From a virus (taxonomy: Duplodnaviria > Caudoviricetes), in IMG/VR virus record IMGVR_UViG_3300044802_000092, positions 1 to 58,252 of that record: DNA of 58,252 nt; one strand, 5' to 3'. Both the position numbers and the translations under genes were made by a program. The notes beneath the pieces were generated by a model. It did no database searches, was not told where the DNA came from, and saw only the letters and a list, made by a program, of their open reading frames with translations. Shown one piece after another: positions 26,557-56,943 of this stretch. Every line of letters starts with the position of its first letter. Position 1 is the first letter of the stretch.

Positions 26557-26585
26557 ACCCTACCACACCCAGGTGTGGCTGTCAA
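26557..26585 (-). promoter_or_regulatory. Sigma70-like promoter
   Basis: TTGACA-gccacacctgggtgtgg-TAGGGT. Confidence 0.65.
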
Positions 26586-26599
26586 GATATAAATATCGG

Positions 26600-33895: not shown

Positions 33896-33935
33896 CTGTC
33901 TCCCTCAAGGCATTTTCCAGTCAGAAACACTATGC

Positions 33936-34026
33936 GCCGCAGCCTGGGTGAATTTGCCAGGGTATAACGGGCTGCCCAACTCAGCTGGAATTCACCCTTG
34001 CGGCCAGCTGTGCTCTGTAAAAGAGC
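33936..34026 (-). promoter_or_regulatory. Structured 5' leader of late operon
   Basis: Nested stems GCCGCA/TGCGGC, GGGTGAATT/AATTCACCC, CCAG/CTGG plus GCTCT/AGAGC hairpin. Confidence 0.55.
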
Positions 34027-34090
34027 CTGTCAAACAACTCAAACGAAAACAAGACACACTAAGTGGTGCAACCTATCCGATCCGAGAGAC

Positions 34091-34119
34091 ACTATAGCAC
34101 ACCCCGAGGCCGCTGTCTA
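34091..34119 (-). promoter_or_regulatory. Promoter for NusG-paralog/late operon
   Basis: TAGACA-17 nt (ending TGTGC)-TATAGT. Confidence 0.6.
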
Positions 34120-34128
34120 GTATGAACC

Positions 34129-34235
34129 CGCGAAATACTAGAATGCGGGAATGCGGCGAAACCCAGAAACACGAGAATGTGGCGAAACACGACGAAACAC
34201 GACGAAACGAGAATAGAGACGGAATACTGAATAAC
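34129..34235. repeat. Degenerate GACGAAACAC/GAATA repeat cluster (left)
   Basis: CGAAACACGACGAAACACGACGAAAC; reverse complement of the right cluster core. Confidence 0.65.
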
Positions 34236-34789
34236 GCAAGGGCCTTGCTGAGGTACTTTCTTTGACGGCACGGGGGTTGGAATACTGGCGCCCGCCTCCC
34301 CCAGGAGGGACTATGAATGCCCGCCGGACGGGGCTCGAGAGGGGGTCGAGACTAGCAAGTACTTGCCAGCAGCTAGAAGCAACACCTTGCGTTGATTAAC
34401 TGAAATATCGCGATTAACTTGAGGCCCGTCCGACGGGGGCTGAAATACTCGTTTTCGGAAACATGAGGGGCACTGGCACGGGTAGTAGGTCCCTCCGCCC
34501 CCCGGGGGCGATAAAAACTTAACTTTGGTAAACATGCAGCCAAGGGGTGTCATGGAACATGCGTCTTGCTTCGGTCGAGGGCCTCTCGATGCCCGTCCCG
34601 CCGAAGTCTGTCTCGCCCCGGGGATCGCCCCGTGGCGCCTTGTCAACGTACCCCGAGTCTGCTAACCGTGGGCCTACTTTAGGGGGCCTCTTGGGGTGCA
34701 AGTTGGGGTCTCAGCAATAAATCGTTGGTTGTAATGGTGGCCCTCTACATCATCGCCTGGGGCCTGAAAATATGCTCGTATTCTGCTCT

Positions 34790-34997
34790 GTTTCGTCTAG
34801 TTCCCGGCGACTGTTCCGGGGGTGTTTCGTCTATTTCCCGCTGCGGGTTTCGTCGATTTCCCTCCGTCTATTCCGGAGGTGTTTCGTCTAGTTCCCTCCG
34901 TCTATTCCGGAGGTGTTTCGTCTAGTTCCCTCCGTCTATTCCGGAGGTGTTTCGTCTAGTTCCCGTCTCGGGTCTCGTCTGTTTCATCCAGTTCCCG
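34790..34997. repeat. Iteron-like cluster: three perfect 34-bp units plus degenerate copies
   Basis: CCTCCGTCTATTCCGGAGGTGTTTCGTCTAGTTC x3 (34861-34962); core GTTTCGTCTAGTTCCC about seven times. Confidence 0.9.
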
Positions 34998-35047
34998 GCT
35001 CCAGTGCCTTTTCGGCCCTCCCGCCCCTCATTTCGGGCGGTTCGGCC

Positions 35048-35077
35048 TTGACAGCACTAGAGCCGGTGTGGTAGACT
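35048..35077 (+). promoter_or_regulatory. Sigma70-like promoter for primase
   Basis: TTGACA-18 nt (ending TGTGG)-TAGACT. Confidence 0.6.
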
Positions 35078-35145
35078 GAGCGATGGTGGCGCCCCGGTCC
35101 AATGTTAACGGCGACATCAGTGATCAACTATACGCCGTCCGGCCT

Positions 35146-35174
35146 AGTGTACCACATCTCCGGCCCCGGCGCAA
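35146..35174 (-). promoter_or_regulatory. Convergent promoter facing the primase promoter
   Basis: TTGCGC-17 nt (ending TGTGG)-TACACT. Confidence 0.45.
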
Positions 35175-35195
35175 TCCCCCTCAGGAGGCGGCCGT

Positions 35196-37684: not shown

Positions 37685-37732
37685 CAAACCCCCGCTTCGT
37701 GTGTTAGGTTGTTGATTGTCAATAACTGTCAA
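37681..37732 (+). promoter_or_regulatory. Sigma70-like promoter plus AACTGTCAA box
   Basis: TTGACA-18-TAGGTT; box at 37724-37732 before RBS. Confidence 0.6.
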
Positions 37733-38265: not shown

Positions 38266-38346
38266 TGGCTTGGGGCACGTTGCACCAAGCTTTGAGGGGG
38301 AGGGGACAGGACGTTCCTTCCCCCTCAGTTTTAAGGGAAGGTTGGC

Positions 38347-39444: not shown

Positions 39445-39566
39445 CTGAAACATTCGAGTAATACCCAGAGAATATTCGGGGAACGTAATTGTGTTTCCCG
39501 TTTTCCTTTCGGTTTCAGGCGGAGAAATCAAAAGGTCCTTCAACCCTCCGTCAACTGAGGTTCCAA

Positions 39567-40268
39567 ATGCGTTCTTGGGCAGTGGCGATTTTCCTGTCGG
39601 TCTTGGGCGGAACTAGTTTCCCCGCTCGCGCCGACTACAGACCGAGCTGGACAGAACCCGCACCGAAAACTCATAAAAAGCACCGCACACACAAGGTTGC
39701 CCGGCACAGCCGCAAAAAGCACCGCACACATAAGGCCACCCGGCACAGCCATAAAAAGCACCGCAGGTCTCGCGGGCGGCACGTTTCCTCTGCCCCCTAC
39801 TCCCACGTTCGTTCCCCTCAAGTTCCGCCCCCCTCCGGCGGCATGGTGACTATACCGACCGTGGCGGGGCGAATTACCGTTGCGCGCAGCCAGGCTCCCC
39901 ATTGGCAGGCCCTGATTGCGGACCTTGCCGCCGCAGGCTATCGCCCGCACCGTCTTGGCTGCTATGCTTCGGGTGGCCATGTGACCTATTCCCGCCATTA
40001 TGTGGGTGCGGCATGCGATTTTGATGGTTCTCTTTCTCGCAGCGCCTTCATGCGGAGCCAGACCGCCCATCGCATTATCGTCGCCCACGGTTTTCGCAAC
40101 GGTTGCAGCTTTGCCGTTCACGGGGTGCGCGATTGTGGCCACGTCGACGACGGGCGCGCCGGGCACCGGCACAACTGGTACACTCTCGGAATAAGAATGC
40201 CTCGCTTTGGCCACCGGCGGCGCGGCGTGCCTGATACCGGAATGGGGCTGGGAATGTGGCCCTTTTAG
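39567..40268 (+). CDS. Secreted peptidase M15-like protein with His/Lys-rich linker
   Basis: Signal peptide MRSWAVAIFLSVLGGTSFPARA; SRHYVGAACDF and DCGHV Zn-ligand motifs. Confidence 0.7.
   Translation: MRSWAVAIFLSVLGGTSFPARADYRPSWTEPAPKTHKKHRTHKVARHSRKKHRTHKATRHSHKKHRRSRGRHVSSAPYSHVRSPQVPPPSGGMVTIPTVAGRITVARSQAPHWQALIADLAAAGYRPHRLGCYASGGHVTYSRHYVGAACDFDGSLSRSAFMRSQTAHRIIVAHGFRNGCSFAVHGVRDCGHVDDGRAGHRHNWYTLGIRMPRFGHRRRGVPDTGMGLGMWPF
39672..39765. repeat. 39-bp imperfect tandem repeat (HKKHRTHKxxRHS)
   Basis: AAAAAGCACCGCAC recurs at 39-bp spacing. Confidence 0.8.
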
Positions 40269-40280
40269 GTTGTGTATTCC

Positions 40281-40320
40281 AGCCCGTGCCCTTGACGCCG
40301 GGCACGGGCTGTGTTTTTTT
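40281..40320 (+). terminator. Intrinsic terminator
   Basis: AGCCCGTGCCC/GGGCACGGGCT stem followed by T7. Confidence 0.75.
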
Positions 40321-40345
40321 GTATTAACACTCACAGGAGGTCCCC

Positions 40346-40693
40346 ATGACCAGCGAAGATTCTACATCCAGCACCATCATCGCCGATAAATATAGAGGCA
40401 ACTACCAGGCAGTCAAGTTCGCAAAGGGCGGCAAAAACTACACTTCCCGTATCTCTAGCGATTCCGTTGCCTACGGCCTGCTTGGGGCCGACGACGGGGA
40501 ATTGAGGGATGTGCTGGAAGAGAACGGTGCCATCGGGCAAATCGAAGGCAAGACATATCCGAATCAGGGCATGTTTCGCATGGCCGCCGGGGCAATTCTG
40601 CGCGGAAAACTTCGGCGTGGCGAGTCCATTAAGATCAAGGGCAAGATCGTCAAGACCCTCGACCAGCAAGTGAAGTCCCCGTTCATCGACTAA
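40346..40693 (+). CDS. Hypothetical protein (paralog-like of 37747-38265)
   Basis: AGGAGG RBS; YPNQGMFRMAAGAILRG. Confidence 0.75.
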   Translation: MTSEDSTSSTIIADKYRGNYQAVKFAKGGKNYTSRISSDSVAYGLLGADDGELRDVLEENGAIGQIEGKTYPNQGMFRMAAGAILRGKLRRGESIKIKGKIVKTLDQQVKSPFID

Positions 40694-40725
40694 GTTTCGT
40701 TCGATCTGCCGGTTGAATGAAATTA

Positions 40726-40775
40726 GGGCCGCTGGAATATACAGGTTTCGCCTGTTCCAGCGGCCTCTATATATT
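40726..40775 (+). terminator. Terminator-like hairpin
   Basis: GGCCGCTGGAA/TTCCAGCGGCC with inner ACAGG/CCTGT, then AT-rich tail. Confidence 0.55.
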
Positions 40776-40780
40776 TGGGC

Positions 40781-40809
40781 TTGACGGCCGGACGCCGGTG
40801 TGGTAGAGT
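40781..40809 (+). promoter_or_regulatory. Sigma70-like promoter
   Basis: TTGACG-17 nt (ending TGTGG)-TAGAGT. Confidence 0.6.
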
Positions 40810-40815
40810 GTCCTT

Positions 40816-41127
40816 AAGGTCAGGGAGGCACGGATAGAGCCCCAGTCCAAGAAGCCGACCCTGACCGGCATATCGATTTTCGTGTTAGGGATTTCCTTGA
40901 ACACGAAAAGGTGTGGACCTGAGCTTCCTTGTTCCCTCAGGTCCACACTTCCCGTTTTCCGGTGCGGTGTTTTGACAGTTGACACCGCACAAACCGCCGG
41001 GCCAAGTATAGGCGCAGGCCCGGCGGCACTTATAGTTTGGCTGGCCCCGTATTCGGTCCCCCCGCTCGGAGCCAGTCTCAGGGCAGCTAGGTCTCTCGCG
41101 CCCCCGTGCCTCGGCCTAGCTGCCCGC
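40816..41127 (+). ncRNA. Candidate seven-hairpin structured RNA / long leader
   Basis: Seven consecutive 8-13 bp stems starting at the predicted TSS; no credible ORF. Confidence 0.65.
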
Positions 41128-41148
41128 CCCCTTGATAGGACAGTTTGC

Positions 41149-41478
41149 GTGCCCATCGTGTATGTCCCCCACCCTGTAAAAAACGACATCAGCGCGGCCA
41201 AGCTGTGGGGCTCTCTAGTTTTCATAAATAAGGGGTACGTTTACCCGGATGCAATAGATGATATAACCGATTCCATAGCCAGCGAGGTTTTTGACAACCT
41301 CGCAAAAGCCGCAAATTCTTTTACCCCCTCAGATTACCTGCTCATTGCGGGCGACCACCTCCAGATCGTTCAGTTTAGCGCCTTGTTGGGTGCCCGGTTT
41401 CCCTCCTTTTGGGCACTTCGGTACTTGCCCCACGTATCCGCGTACATGTCAGTTAGGATTCACACCGTTTCCAGATAA
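41149..41478 (+). CDS. Conserved phage hypothetical protein
   Basis: GTG start, VYVP...DISAAKLWG...DYLLIAGD. Confidence 0.7.
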   Translation: MPIVYVPHPVKNDISAAKLWGSLVFINKGYVYPDAIDDITDSIASEVFDNLAKAANSFTPSDYLLIAGDHLQIVQFSALLGARFPSFWALRYLPHVSAYMSVRIHTVSR

Positions 41479-41494
41479 ACAACAGGGTTGCGTC

Positions 41495-41523
41495 TTGACA
41501 GCCCTGTCGGGCTGTGCTACGGT
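41495..41523 (+). promoter_or_regulatory. Sigma70-like promoter
   Basis: TTGACA-17 nt (ending TGTGC)-TACGGT. Confidence 0.55.
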
Positions 41524-41567
41524 AAGGGTTAAGAGAGTCTTAACGGCGGCAAGTAAGGAGTACGGCG

Positions 41568-42125
41568 ATGGCAAAAAAACCCTCTACTCTGATAGATTTC
41601 AACACTTTACCCCAAAGTTTATTCGAGCGAAATAATCCCACCAAAAACATAGCGGCCGAACTCCTAGAACTGTCTAGACACCTTCAAGTTCTGCGCGCTC
41701 ACATGTTTGAGGCTGCCCGGTCAGGCTCCAACTCGTTAGCCCGGTCTTTCGTGACGCTCCATCAACTTAACGAAAACATGCAACTTCTTGTTAAGCAATT
41801 CAACAAGTTGATGGAACACTACAAAACCGTAGCCGTTCCGGACGTGCTTGACATGGCGGGGGTGACAAACGTGCCGTTGGCCGAGGGCTTCCGGGTGGGA
41901 ACTTCCAGCCGGTTGTGGGCTTCATTTCAGGTCGAAAATCAAGATGAAGGCTTTGAGTGGCTACGGCGCAATGGGATGGGAGACCTTATCAAGTTAACCG
42001 TAAACACTCAAACCTTATCCAGTGCAATCTCGCAACACCTAGACGAATATAGTGAGGAGCCGCCCCCTGAACTAATAAAAGTAACAGTCACGCAAAACAC
42101 TTCAGTAACTCGTACAAAGAAATAG
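41568..42125 (+). CDS. Conserved phage replication-module protein
   Basis: FEWLRxNGMGDLIKxTVNxQTLS motif; AAGGAG RBS. Confidence 0.75.
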   Translation: MAKKPSTLIDFNTLPQSLFERNNPTKNIAAELLELSRHLQVLRAHMFEAARSGSNSLARSFVTLHQLNENMQLLVKQFNKLMEHYKTVAVPDVLDMAGVTNVPLAEGFRVGTSSRLWASFQVENQDEGFEWLRRNGMGDLIKLTVNTQTLSSAISQHLDEYSEEPPPELIKVTVTQNTSVTRTKK

Positions 42126-42134
42126 GCAAACCCC

Positions 42135-43016
42135 ATGGCAAAGTCCCCCACAGCAGCTGCCCGCAGCACTCCAAACCTTCCCGCCACAACGGCCCCCTCA
42201 CACCTGGCACTGACCGACGAGGTGCCCGAGTTCATGTCAGGTGATGCGGGAAAAGGCCTGGAATCGGTCGGGGCTGAAGACGTTTCAGTTCCTCGTATCA
42301 AACTGATGCAAGGAACCTCCCCAGAACTGACGACGTTTGATGACTTACGGCAGGGCGATTTCTGGCATACGGCTAACGAAGTGAACCTGGGCCAAAAGTT
42401 CCTTGCCGTGCCCGTATACCGCGACAAGCGTTACATCCTGTGGCGGCCTCAAGATTCCGGCGGGGGCATCCTGGCCCGCGCGGACGACGGCAAAACTTGG
42501 ATTCCGGCCAACACTTCATTTGAAGTAAAGTTGGATGCAAAACAGGGAGGAAAAACTGTTACTTGGACCACCGGGGACACCGTGGAAAACTCCGGGCTAG
42601 CCCTGTGGGGAACCTCCGACCCTGAAGACTCTTCGTCCCCGCCCGCCGCCACTCTCATGTACAACTTCGTTCTGGTCTTTCCAGAGCACCCTGAGCTGGC
42701 CCCGGCAATTCTGACATTTCAGCGCTCAACCGTGGGGGTTGCTCGAAAGTTCTTAGGTACCCTCAAAACCCGCAACCGCCCGATCTTTGGTCAGGTTTAC
42801 GAGTTTTGCTCAGTAGGAGCGACCAACAAAGACGGGAAGCCGTTTAGGTCGATCGTTCCGCGCGCTGCGGGCCTGATTGCGGATAAGGCCCTTTACGACA
42901 GGTATAAGGGGATGTACGAAACCTTCGCAAAATCGGCACTTCAAATCCGTGACGTCGAAAGCTTGCAGGTGGAAGCCGAAGAAGAAACCGCAACCGTTGG
43001 CCGGCCGGAGTATTGA
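42135..43016 (+). CDS. Putative ssDNA-binding / replication accessory protein
   Basis: GLExVxxEDVxVPRIKLMQxxSPE; acidic C-terminal tail; position upstream of DNA polymerase. Confidence 0.6.
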   Translation: MAKSPTAAARSTPNLPATTAPSHLALTDEVPEFMSGDAGKGLESVGAEDVSVPRIKLMQGTSPELTTFDDLRQGDFWHTANEVNLGQKFLAVPVYRDKRYILWRPQDSGGGILARADDGKTWIPANTSFEVKLDAKQGGKTVTWTTGDTVENSGLALWGTSDPEDSSSPPAATLMYNFVLVFPEHPELAPAILTFQRSTVGVARKFLGTLKTRNRPIFGQVYEFCSVGATNKDGKPFRSIVPRAAGLIADKALYDRYKGMYETFAKSALQIRDVESLQVEAEEETATVGRPEY

Positions 43017-47564: not shown

Positions 47565-47567
47565 GAC

Positions 47568-47617
47568 TTGACAAGAACGGGCTTGCGTGGTAGGGTGGAC
47601 GCTGTCTAAACTGTCAA
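47568..47617 (+). promoter_or_regulatory. Sigma70-like promoter plus AACTGTCAA box
   Basis: TTGACA-17-TAGGGT; box at 47609-47617. Confidence 0.65.
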
Positions 47618-54354: not shown

Positions 54355-54652
54355 CCTATGAGTGCTATTGTGATGGGGACCTCCCGGGTGTTTCCAAACC
54401 TACTGCACCTGCCGCCGATGTCTGGATCTGAGGAATTGGGCGAAAATTTCCGCGCCTTGTTTCTGTTGGGCCTACGGTGATCTGCATGACGCGGTACGGG
54501 AACTGGTGGCGCAGGTTGCGCCGGACGTGCCAGGGGTCGCGCAAGAATGGGAGGCACTAATGATGGAAATCCGAAGGGCTAAAAACGTACCCAAAGCAAT
54601 ATGCGACACCGTGTCACATCAAGCGGTGTTTCCGAACAAAGCAAATACTTGA
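54351..54652 (+). pseudogene. Frameshifted Cys-rich (zinc-binding) phage gene
   Basis: MTYECYCDGDLPG continues in another frame as FQTYCTCRRCLDLRNW...CFCWAYG. Confidence 0.5.
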
Positions 54653-54677
54653 CAAACCCGGTCAAGTATGATAAAAT
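54647..54677 (+). promoter_or_regulatory. Strong early promoter with overlapping inverted repeat
   Basis: TTGACA-17-TAAAAT; TACTTGAC-N7-GTCAAGTA palindrome over the -35. Confidence 0.75.
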
Positions 54678-54781
54678 TAAAACATAGATAGGGCGGCGAG
54701 GGGAGCGGGGCAGGAGCCCACAAACCAGACCGGGAAGCCCAGGGTGAAACAGTCGAGCTGACCTCACCAGAAAACAACCAA

Positions 54782-54828
54782 TGTCGTGGGATGGGCGTCC
54801 CACCTGATGAGCCGAAAACGGCGAAACA
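54782..54828 (+). ncRNA. Hammerhead ribozyme (type III topology)
   Basis: GUC, stem I GUGGGAU/GUCCCAC, CUGAUGA, stem II GCCG-AAAA-CGGC, GAAA, 3-bp stem III. Confidence 0.75.
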
Positions 54829-54852
54829 AACTGTCAAACATAGGAAACTAAC

Positions 54853-55041
54853 ATGACTAACTACATCGTCACAATGCGCTTCCAGTTCCCCGCGTGGGAC
54901 GAAAAAGACGGTATCGAATTCGAGGTGTCGGCTGCCAATAAGCGTGAGGCTAATGCAAAAGGCCGCCGCCAAGCGAAAGATGCCGGCCATGCGAGAGCAA
55001 ACCGCGGCCTCTACTGGTTCAAAGCAACTGAGGCGCGCTAA
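54853..55041 (+). CDS. Small early protein
   Basis: ATAGGA RBS; MTNYIVTMRFQFPAWDE. Confidence 0.7.
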   Translation: MTNYIVTMRFQFPAWDEKDGIEFEVSAANKREANAKGRRQAKDAGHARANRGLYWFKATEAR

Positions 55042-55219
55042 GCGCCTCACCCCAAGAAAGGCAATGCGAGAGCAAACCGCGGCCTCTACTGGTTCAAAGC
55101 AACTGAGGCGCGCTAAGCGCCTCACCCCAAGAAAGGCAATGCGAGAGCAAACCGCGGCCTCTACTGGTTCAAAGCAACCGAGGCGCGCTAAGCGCCTCAC
55201 CCCAAGAAAGGCAATGCGA
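54989..55219. repeat. 75-bp tandem triplication
   Basis: Units start at 54989, 55064, 55139; one SNP in unit 3; bounded by ATGCGA. Confidence 0.92.
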
Positions 55220-55253
55220 ATGTACAAATGGATTGGATCTCACCGAAAAACAC

Positions 55254-55298
55254 TGTAGTAGGATGTATGTCCTACCTGATGAGCTGAAAATAGAAAGT
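55254..55298 (+). ncRNA. Degenerate hammerhead ribozyme copy
   Basis: GUA, stem I GUAGGAU/GUCCUAC, CUGAUGA; stem II and stem III damaged. Confidence 0.5.
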
Positions 55299-55320
55299 AA
55301 ACTGTCAAAAGGAACTGAAC

Positions 55321-55692
55321 GTGAAAAAGTGCCTCACCCAAACAACTGCCGATACGGCTCCCGTCCACCTGGCGATTTGGTACTTCGAGCGCGGCGTCAA
55401 GATCTATAAAATTTCGCCCTGCGTGTGTGGCGACCTTTCCGGCGTGCGCGGCGATCTTACCGGCGTGAGCGGCTATCTTTCCGGCGTGCGCGGCGACCTT
55501 ACCGGCGTGCGCGGCGACCTTACCGGCGTGTATGGCGATCTTACCGGCGTGAGCGGCGACCTTACCGGCGTGTATGGCGATCTTACCGGCGTGAGCGGCT
55601 ATCTTTCCGGCGTGCGCGGCGATTTGGATGACGCCGAAATAACCAACGCCGATCGCGAACTTGGTGTTAACATTGCTGACCTAATTCAGTAA
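55321..55692 (+). CDS. Heptapeptide-repeat protein (GDLTGVx)
   Basis: About nine 21-bp repeats GGCGA(C/T)CTTACCGGCGTG-NNN. Confidence 0.75.
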   Translation: MKKCLTQTTADTAPVHLAIWYFERGVKIYKISPCVCGDLSGVRGDLTGVSGYLSGVRGDLTGVRGDLTGVYGDLTGVSGDLTGVYGDLTGVSGYLSGVRGDLDDAEITNADRELGVNIADLIQ

Positions 55693-56381: not shown

Positions 56382-56458
56382 ATATTGCAAGGGAGGATGG
56401 GTCGCCCCATCCTCCTGTTAGTCCCTTTTCGGACAGACTGTCAACAAAGGAGAACGTG

Positions 56459-56872: not shown

Positions 56873-56943
56873 GGTCTAATTTGAGGGGGTTTCGACCCCC
56901 TCGCTTGGTCCATTTTTGGACAAACTGTCAAAAGGAGATATCA

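Follow-up and report, generated by a model that had tools for sequence, protein, structure and literature searches.

A seven-hairpin array behind a putative early-type promoter in an uncultivated soil phage, and its possible role as a messenger leader

This analysis revealed that the longest non-coding gap listed in the genome of an uncultivated phage (Duplodnaviria; Caudoviricetes), 455 nt at 40694-41148, contains an array of seven hairpins (40816-41127), which is a real, statistically extreme and orphan structured element behind a credible promoter. The reading that we favour, with about even confidence, is that the array is the structured untranslated 5' leader of the mRNA of a gp32-like gene and the replication block behind it, an RNA for which we infer transcription, start site and role. 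The IMG/VR record, IMGVR_UViG_3300044802_000092, is linear and approximately 98% complete, and its entire 58,252 bp are referred to here as the window. Near-identical DNA was present in two peat metagenome runs, with no RNA run among those matched, and the contigs of these two DNA runs showed no variants in the array. The contigs of the probable source run break at 40827-40838; given local contigs of 3-7 kb at a depth of 7-10, this break was set aside as ordinary low-coverage fragmentation.

The genes of the record lie on the - strand at 451-34646 and on the + strand from 34725 onwards. Among the products of the + strand block are a Prim-Pol/DUF5906 primase-helicase, a D12 methyltransferase and a gp32/gp33/gp34-like trio with matches to the Pfam families Pam3_gp32 (weak), DUF7307 (gp33-like) and Pam3_Gp34, after which comes a family A DNA polymerase. 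The gene downstream of the gap is the first of this conserved block and scored 26.0 bits against Pam3_gp32, under the 27-bit cut-off. Neither the gp34-like profile nor the gp32-like protein gave a significant match in sequence searches of the PDB. In bacterial genomes, the gp34-like protein has relatives at approximately 40% identity, which lie in prophage-like stretches and belong almost exclusively to Alphaproteobacteria (Xanthobacteraceae, Nitrobacter, Bradyrhizobium). The features discussed below are collected in Table 1.

Table 1. Coordinates of the array, of its surroundings and of related elements in the window
Feature	Position	Strand	Description
Upstream gene	40346-40693	+	Gap starts after its stop
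Hairpin 0	40727-40765	+	11-bp perfect stem, 17-nt loop, 34 nt past the stop of the upstream gene
Promoter P2	40781-40809	+	Sigma-70-type, extended -10; scan: 9/12 matches, TG before -10
Hairpin 1	40818-40866	+	Perfect inverted repeat 40818-40825 / 40859-40866, 8 bp
Hairpin 2	40877-40909	+	Perfect 40877-40886 / 40900-40909, 10 bp, 13-nt loop
Hairpin 3	40909-40950	+	Perfect core 40911-40923 / 40936-40948, 13 bp
Hairpin 4	40962-40990	+	Perfect 40962-40970 / 40982-40990, stem 9-10 bp
Hairpin 5	40994-41026	+	Perfect 40994-41003 / 41017-41026, 10 bp, G+C-rich, 13-nt loop
Hairpin 6	41039-41077	+	Imperfect three-segment stem of 7+3+3 bp, one G-U, C-rich interior
Hairpin 7	41081-41125	+	Perfect 41081-41091 / 41115-41125, 11 bp
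Downstream gp32-like gene	41149-41478	+	109 aa, GTG start, Shine-Dalgarno 41137-41141
Primase promoter	35048-35077		Same family as P2, shares 15-nt block with it
P2 look-alike	~26571-26599	-	Before structural genes; by eye in intergenic listing
P2 look-alikes (two)	~37.5-37.7 kb		By eye in intergenic listing
P2 look-alike	41495-41523		By eye; short hairpin directly after
P2 look-alike	47567-47596		By eye in intergenic listing
ACTGTCAA copy	37725-37732	+	14 nt before start 37747; candidate loop 4 target
ACTGTCAA copy	47610-47617	+	12 nt before start 47630; candidate loop 4 target
ACTGTCAA copy	54830-54837	+	15 nt before start 54853; candidate loop 4 target
ACTGTCAA copy	55301-55308	+	12 nt before start 55321; candidate loop 4 target
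ACTGTCAA copy	56437-56444	+	~11-14 nt before start 56456/56459; candidate loop 4 target
ACTGTCAA copy	56924-56931	+	12 nt before start 56944; candidate loop 4 target

All seven stems described in the initial annotation were recovered by an inverted-repeat search, six of them perfect and that of hairpin 6 imperfect. Folded from 40816, the seven hairpins form independently, with mean pair probabilities of 0.84-1.0. The + strand at 40810-41148 reached -168.9 kcal/mol, compared with -119.9 +/- 5.8 kcal/mol for 100 dinucleotide shuffles (z -8.5), and none of the 100 was as good, so that shuffled controls do not fold equally well, as the initial annotation had considered they might. The window contains 30 perfect hairpins of at least 9 bp with loops of 3-30 nt, and six of these 30 lie inside 40727-41125; at the density of the window about 0.2 would be expected per 400 nt, which places this stretch at approximately 30 times that density. 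The 97 loci of relatives, some of which are duplicates of one contig, contain 153 hairpins of this kind in 513,839 nt (0.30 per kb), with a maximum of three per 400 nt.

With regard to the loops, which had earlier been described as large, that of hairpin 2 is predicted to narrow from 13 nt to a 4-nt loop. Hairpin 1 exhibits a 33-nt loop containing small inner helices. Hairpin 3 extends to 15 bp on the + strand when its A-U and G-U extension is counted, and its loop of 12 nt is pyrimidine-rich, with an unpaired probability of 0.94 (0.73 for the loop of hairpin 5). Hairpin 7 reaches 13 bp including a U-G extension and carries a C-rich loop of 23 nt with a 4-bp inner helix. The pyrimidine-rich character attributed to several loops was thus seen in loops 3 and 7 and in part of loop 6, the others not being clearly so. 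A kissing contact had also been proposed between hairpin 1 and loop 7. The underlying 9-nt complementarity (40825-40833 with 41104-41112) does exist, but it is at chance level, since 160 of 2000 dinucleotide shuffles contained a perfect long-range 9-mer, and in the predicted fold some bases of each partner are taken up by local pairing.

The - strand of the array region folds nearly as well (z -7.0), because any set of inverted repeats must do so. When the hairpins were folded one by one, G-U pairs numbered 9 on the + strand (-157.1 kcal/mol) and 4 on the - strand (-150.8 kcal/mol), an asymmetry which would suggest a small preference for RNA of the + strand. Folding of both strands, together with the purely Watson-Crick stem cores, is also what would be expected if the element acted as DNA. 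Its hairpins could then be extruded in single-stranded DNA and signal to the primase-polymerase where to prime or start replication, or they could be palindromes beside the replication genes to which a protein binds. Genes for a Prim-Pol/DUF5906 protein and for a family A polymerase do lie nearby, and a promoter beside structured DNA recalls transcription-activated origins. Nevertheless, we consider a function at the DNA level highly improbable: stems of unrelated sequence cannot serve one protein, the G-U extensions favour RNA of the + strand, and a better candidate for an origin or operator lies at 33896-35195, with iteron-like repeats, three 34-bp tandem hairpin repeats and the GC-skew minimum.

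The array could not be assigned to any RNA family, in agreement with the earlier remark that it resembled none. No match to Rfam 15 was found in the whole window at gathering thresholds, and at E values up to 10 the region 40600-41300 gave just three matches, all at chance level (17-18.5 bits) and all to models of eukaryotic miRNAs and lncRNAs. ARAGORN found no tRNA or tmRNA gene in the window. The array was also found to be non-coding. Translation of the + strand reading frame 40882-41148 as an N-terminal extension of the downstream gene, which had been raised as an objection, was rejected: the homologues begin at 41149, the product of the 41149 gene and its homologue in the nearest relative align from their first residues, and the extension matched neither Pfam nor PHROGs. 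The - strand reading frame 40767-41225 was likewise rejected as a gene, with no Pfam or PHROG match. A sponge of the CsrB/RsmZ type was rejected on the criterion of GGA in most loops, as the loops have no common motif; the sole 7-mer common to loops 2 and 3 (40893-40899 and 40925-40931) was matched by 442 of 2000 loop shuffles and is at chance level. The repeat search reported no direct repeats beyond three of 10-12 nt, each in two copies, and a CRISPR or ToxI-like array, for which regular spacing of such repeats would be needed, was rejected. Repeated palindromes of the REP/BIME kind were rejected too, the hairpins including no direct-repeat family, in a test which covered the window. The array shares 27 11-mer positions with the rest of the window (mean 12 and maximum 25 in mononucleotide shuffles), as scattered matches of 11-14 nt only.

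The promoter assigned to the array in the initial annotation, here termed P2, was found again by the scan. It comprises a -35 hexamer at 40781, a 17-nt spacer and a -10 hexamer ending at 40809. Promoter-like matches are not enriched in the region (11 compared with 9.4 expected), and a scan match alone is weak. P2 was taken as real because its last 15 nt recur at 35063-35077 before the primase gene (exactly, with one degenerate position allowed) and because look-alikes stand before genes elsewhere. The family is characterized by a sigma-70-type promoter with an extended -10 and a preceding G-rich block, and its members make it credible that P2 belongs to a genuine set of phage promoters of the early type. 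The first stem starts 9 nt past the -10 hexamer, that is, 2 nt after the expected start near 40816, and hairpin 1 would thus form the extreme 5' end of the transcript.

The hairpins resemble intrinsic terminators in having G+C-rich perfect stems between genes. However, terminators have loops of 3-8 nt and a T run, whereas the loops of the array are of 11-33 nt and no T run is present; a scan of 39500-42500 listed no terminator within 40816-41127, and this function was rejected. Two high-ranking terminator-like sites, each with an 8-nt loop and a T-rich tail, were found just upstream, at 40280-40311 and 38296-38323. Hairpin 0, upstream of P2, is terminator-like without a clean T run. Between hairpin 7 and the gp32-like gene nothing terminator-like was found, and therefore the array, if not processed, would form a 5' leader. 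Sequestration of the gp32-like start by this leader was rejected: with the native leader the initiation region had a mean unpaired probability of 0.52, compared with 0.35 +/- 0.10 for shuffled leaders, none of which (0 of 60) was as high.

In the mechanism that we propose for the leader, an RNA would start at the early-type sigma-70 promoter, the array would constitute its untranslated 5' part of approximately 330 nt, and transcription would continue into the gp32-like gene and the replication block, with no terminator between. The seven hairpins would be independent and self-contained modules, arranged like beads on a string. Hairpin 1 would cap the 5' end, while the remaining hairpins may keep the leader folded against 5'-end-dependent and exonucleolytic decay. 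The folded leader may also deny Rho the unstructured C-rich RNA that it needs for loading, and the hairpins would leave the ribosome-binding site of the next gene unmasked. Hairpin 4 may additionally act in trans. Of these elements, the analysis establishes the fold, the family to which the promoter belongs, that the array is non-coding and that terminator features are absent. Several points speak against the leader reading. One 5' hairpin would suffice for protection, and the presence of seven is unexplained; the array is missing in relatives, so that the stems lack covariation support; the - strand folds nearly as well, and the G-U asymmetry is small; and perfect stems would be equally expected of recently formed DNA palindromes.

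Relatives were found only through the gp34-like protein. In 50,697 phage records, blastn found nothing matching 40700-41480, and no relatives emerged from IMG/VR when the gp33-like protein and the polymerase were each used as a single query. The scans with the gp34-like profile yielded 17 viral, 80 metagenome and 28 genome loci, and the array is absent from all of them. A search of IMG/VR for the exact stem pattern of hairpin 3 gave no match, and that for hairpin 4 gave nine, all of them unrelated hairpins with other loops and contexts. The nearest relative (G001) has a gp34-like protein 70% identical to that of the present phage and a collinear genome. Its corresponding region opens with the homologue of the upstream gene. 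The counterpart of hairpin 0 comes next at the same place, with a stem of 9 bp and a loop of 17 nt, and is followed, in order, by a promoter-like sequence, a single leader hairpin of 11 bp with a 24-nt C-rich loop, a gene for a tandem-repeat protein and the gp32-like gene. The succession of gene, hairpin, promoter, C-rich hairpin with a big loop and ribosome-binding site is therefore kept in this relative, a point in line with the leader reading. The leader hairpin is similar to hairpin 7 as regards its position, the lengths of its stem and loop and the C-rich loop; no covariation can be derived from two sequences. The repeat protein, which occupies the place of the array (locus L002, 23-475), is of 150 aa and consists of tandem repeats of approximately 9 residues. 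The record of this relative is probably circularly permuted, because its two contig ends overlap inside the repeat gene, and the repeat number is uncertain.

A gp32-like match was present in 36 of the 97 loci, of which seven were too near the locus end and seven were duplicates; the seven-hairpin array is absent from the 22 distinct relatives left with usable upstream sequence, as it is from the nearest relative. Seven of these 22 carry at least one perfect hairpin of at least 9 bp within 120 nt upstream of the gp32-like gene, against a background of 0.30 per kb; in two of the seven it is a tandem pair of hairpins without T runs, and a few others look like plain terminators. The site thus often bears hairpins, and the sevenfold array is unique to the present genome among the loci searched.

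An alternative is that the array is a functionless or nearly neutral accumulation of palindromes in an indel-prone gap, left as boundary hairpins of lost inserted genes or as products of template switching. The gap between the flanking genes varies in relatives from approximately 90 to more than 800 nt, with differing ORFs, and in the nearest relative it holds the repeat-protein gene; the stems are unrelated in sequence and conserved nowhere searched, and their perfection fits a recent origin. Nevertheless, we regard this explanation as improbable, given that a density of six perfect hairpins in 400 nt is unequalled in 514 kb of relatives, that no hairpin has terminator features, that the tightly packed array begins exactly at the start site of the promoter and that its folds leave the ribosome-binding site behind it freer than did any of 60 shuffles.

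The initial annotation had further suggested that each loop has a different target. This was not the case for loops 1, 2, 3, 5, 6 and 7, which, when paired with 65 initiation regions, showed no excess over 400 coding controls; the pairing of loop 2 with the start of the upstream gene (-16.3) is inside the control range (minimum -16.5). A candidate set of targets was found for loop 4 only. This loop (40971-40981) has an unpaired probability of 0.81 and contains, at 40972-40979, the reverse complement of ACTGTCAA, which occurs in nine copies in the window compared with 1.24 expected, a number reached by none of 100 shuffles. Seven of the nine copies are on the + strand, and six of these seven abut the Shine-Dalgarno sequence (0-5 nt upstream of it) of small genes. 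When loop 4 was compared by RNAduplex with 65 initiation regions, six reached -11.4 to -12.6 kcal/mol, the best of 400 coding controls being -10.4; a seventh, on the - strand and without ACTGTCAA, also passed the best control (-11.3 kcal/mol). Only three of the 81 8-mers of the loops, which overlap and all belong to loop 4, have as their reverse complement an 8-mer with at least seven + strand copies. Such 8-mers number 193 of 65,536, and only nine of them are A+T-rich. The motif was found through the loop, so that the test is post hoc, and the probability of the match by chance is estimated at approximately 0.002 to 0.2, depending on the null. As judged from these sequences, pairing of loop 4 with the ACTGTCAA boxes is suggestive, and the complementarity expected of an antisense regulator at the ribosome footprint is predicted between the loop and six leaders. 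A role of ACTGTCAA as a promoter element was rejected by reasoning: the RNA must start upstream of the box, because a well-spaced Shine-Dalgarno sequence follows 0-5 nt later.

These observations could be explained by a trans-acting multi-arm regulatory RNA, acting alone or after processing at its A+U-rich linkers, in which loop 4 pairs with ACTGTCAA of six genes. An early transcript of this kind would jointly modulate the translation or decay of the 37747, 47630, 54853, 55321, 56459 and 56944 genes. The enrichment of the box, with six copies directly before a Shine-Dalgarno sequence and a start codon, the exposure of its complement, the six duplexes stronger than any control and the restriction of the antisense match to loop 4 all point in this direction. 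Apart from the post hoc character of the test, the difficulties are that the core of ACTGTCAA includes the -35 hexamer of the phage, so that the shared letters could have their cause at the DNA level, that the six other loops have no target signal and that a loop pairing of 10-11 bp is modest. Moreover, ACTGTCAA is not enriched in five relatives (2, 2, 0, 0 and 2 copies), whose leaders match no repeated A+T-rich motif in antisense; a search of the whole genomes of three relatives for a leader antisense to a repeated box returned only common G+C-rich 8-mers. Overall, we consider a trans-acting RNA unlikely. A combined form, to which we attach a still rather low probability, is an orphan seven-arm RNA that is both messenger leader and regulator, loop 4 pairing with a box of 8-11 nt before the Shine-Dalgarno sequences of six genes spread over 20 kb. 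If true, this would be a one-RNA, many-leader switch that times the phage's own regulon, the other arms being decay-resistant scaffolding or having targets in the host.

Several known systems share features with the array. RNAIII of Staphylococcus aureus is a multi-hairpin regulatory RNA which is simultaneously an mRNA. Like RNAIII, the array comprises many independent hairpins behind their own promoter in an RNA joined to a coding region, and some of its exposed pyrimidine-rich loops could pair beside ribosome-binding sites. In contrast to RNAIII, to which it has no relation of sequence or family, it has one loop with candidate targets, and its C-rich loops show no excess pairing to initiation regions. 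The c4 antisense RNA of phages P1 and P7 (Rfam C4) is cut from an operon leader, and its loops pair with boxes upstream of a ribosome-binding site. The array is similarly a putative phage leader RNA with complementarity to short boxes in this position, but the Rfam scans, which included C4, were negative, the candidate targets would be carried by transcripts other than its own, and it is a far larger structure. REP/BIME clusters and 5' stem-loop stabilizers of mRNA resemble the array as tandem stable hairpins without terminator tails between genes, at a site that is transcribed (putatively so for the array), mRNA stability being what they likely affect. REP elements form one repeated family per genome, whereas the seven stems are mutually unrelated and are found nowhere else in the window. 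Finally, primer transcripts of the ColE1 RNA II type are structured RNAs adjoining replication functions, and as in RNA II a promoter is followed by a multi-hairpin untranslated RNA of several hundred nt near replication genes. Unlike RNA II, the array shows no origin features, the 3' end of its RNA would be C-rich rather than G-rich, and iteron-like repeats are 6 kb away.

To our knowledge, few phage regulatory RNAs are known, and almost all of them come from model phages. A promoter-proximal seven-hairpin orphan RNA from an uncultivated soil phage would, if true, add a new type to these. The pairing of loop 4 with the leader boxes provides a concrete hypothesis for coordinate translational control of phage accessory genes. 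Should the array be no more than a stabilizing leader, or consist of neutral palindromes, it would be a curiosity of a single genome.

Several other elements of the window were also observed. In the divergent control region, iteron-like short direct repeats are present at 33896-34310, and three identical units of a hairpin plus tail, with a period of 34 bp, lie at 34861-34947, just upstream of the primase promoter; both are at the minimum of the cumulative GC skew and form a candidate origin or operator region. The heptamer TTGAGGG occurs in 55 copies (34 on the + strand and 21 on the - strand) compared with 9.4 expected and with a maximum of 19 in 100 shuffles, and it is spread across coding regions of both gene orientations. 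The small + strand ORFs 54944-55258 and 55321-55692 consist largely of tandem peptide repeats (units of approximately 25 residues and short heptad-like units). The - strand ORF 54619-55227, which overlaps the first of these, is probably not a gene, because the + strand ORF 54853-55041 matches PHROG 13774 (E 3e-15). We also identified a candidate type III hammerhead ribozyme on the + strand at 54782-54828, ending 24 nt upstream of the start codon at 54853. It scored 34.2 bits (E 2.8e-05) with Rfam Hammerhead_3, under the gathering score of 48.5; its core fits the family consensus at the conserved positions and stems I and II pair, stem III being of only 3 bp. In prophages, Perreault et al. 2011 (PMC3088659) describe hammerheads as flanking single genes or short gene blocks and propose that they process long phage transcripts. 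Approximately 470 nt further downstream, before the gene 55321, a look-alike at ~55255-55300 exhibits the first half of the core but has no paired stem II; the scan did not list it.
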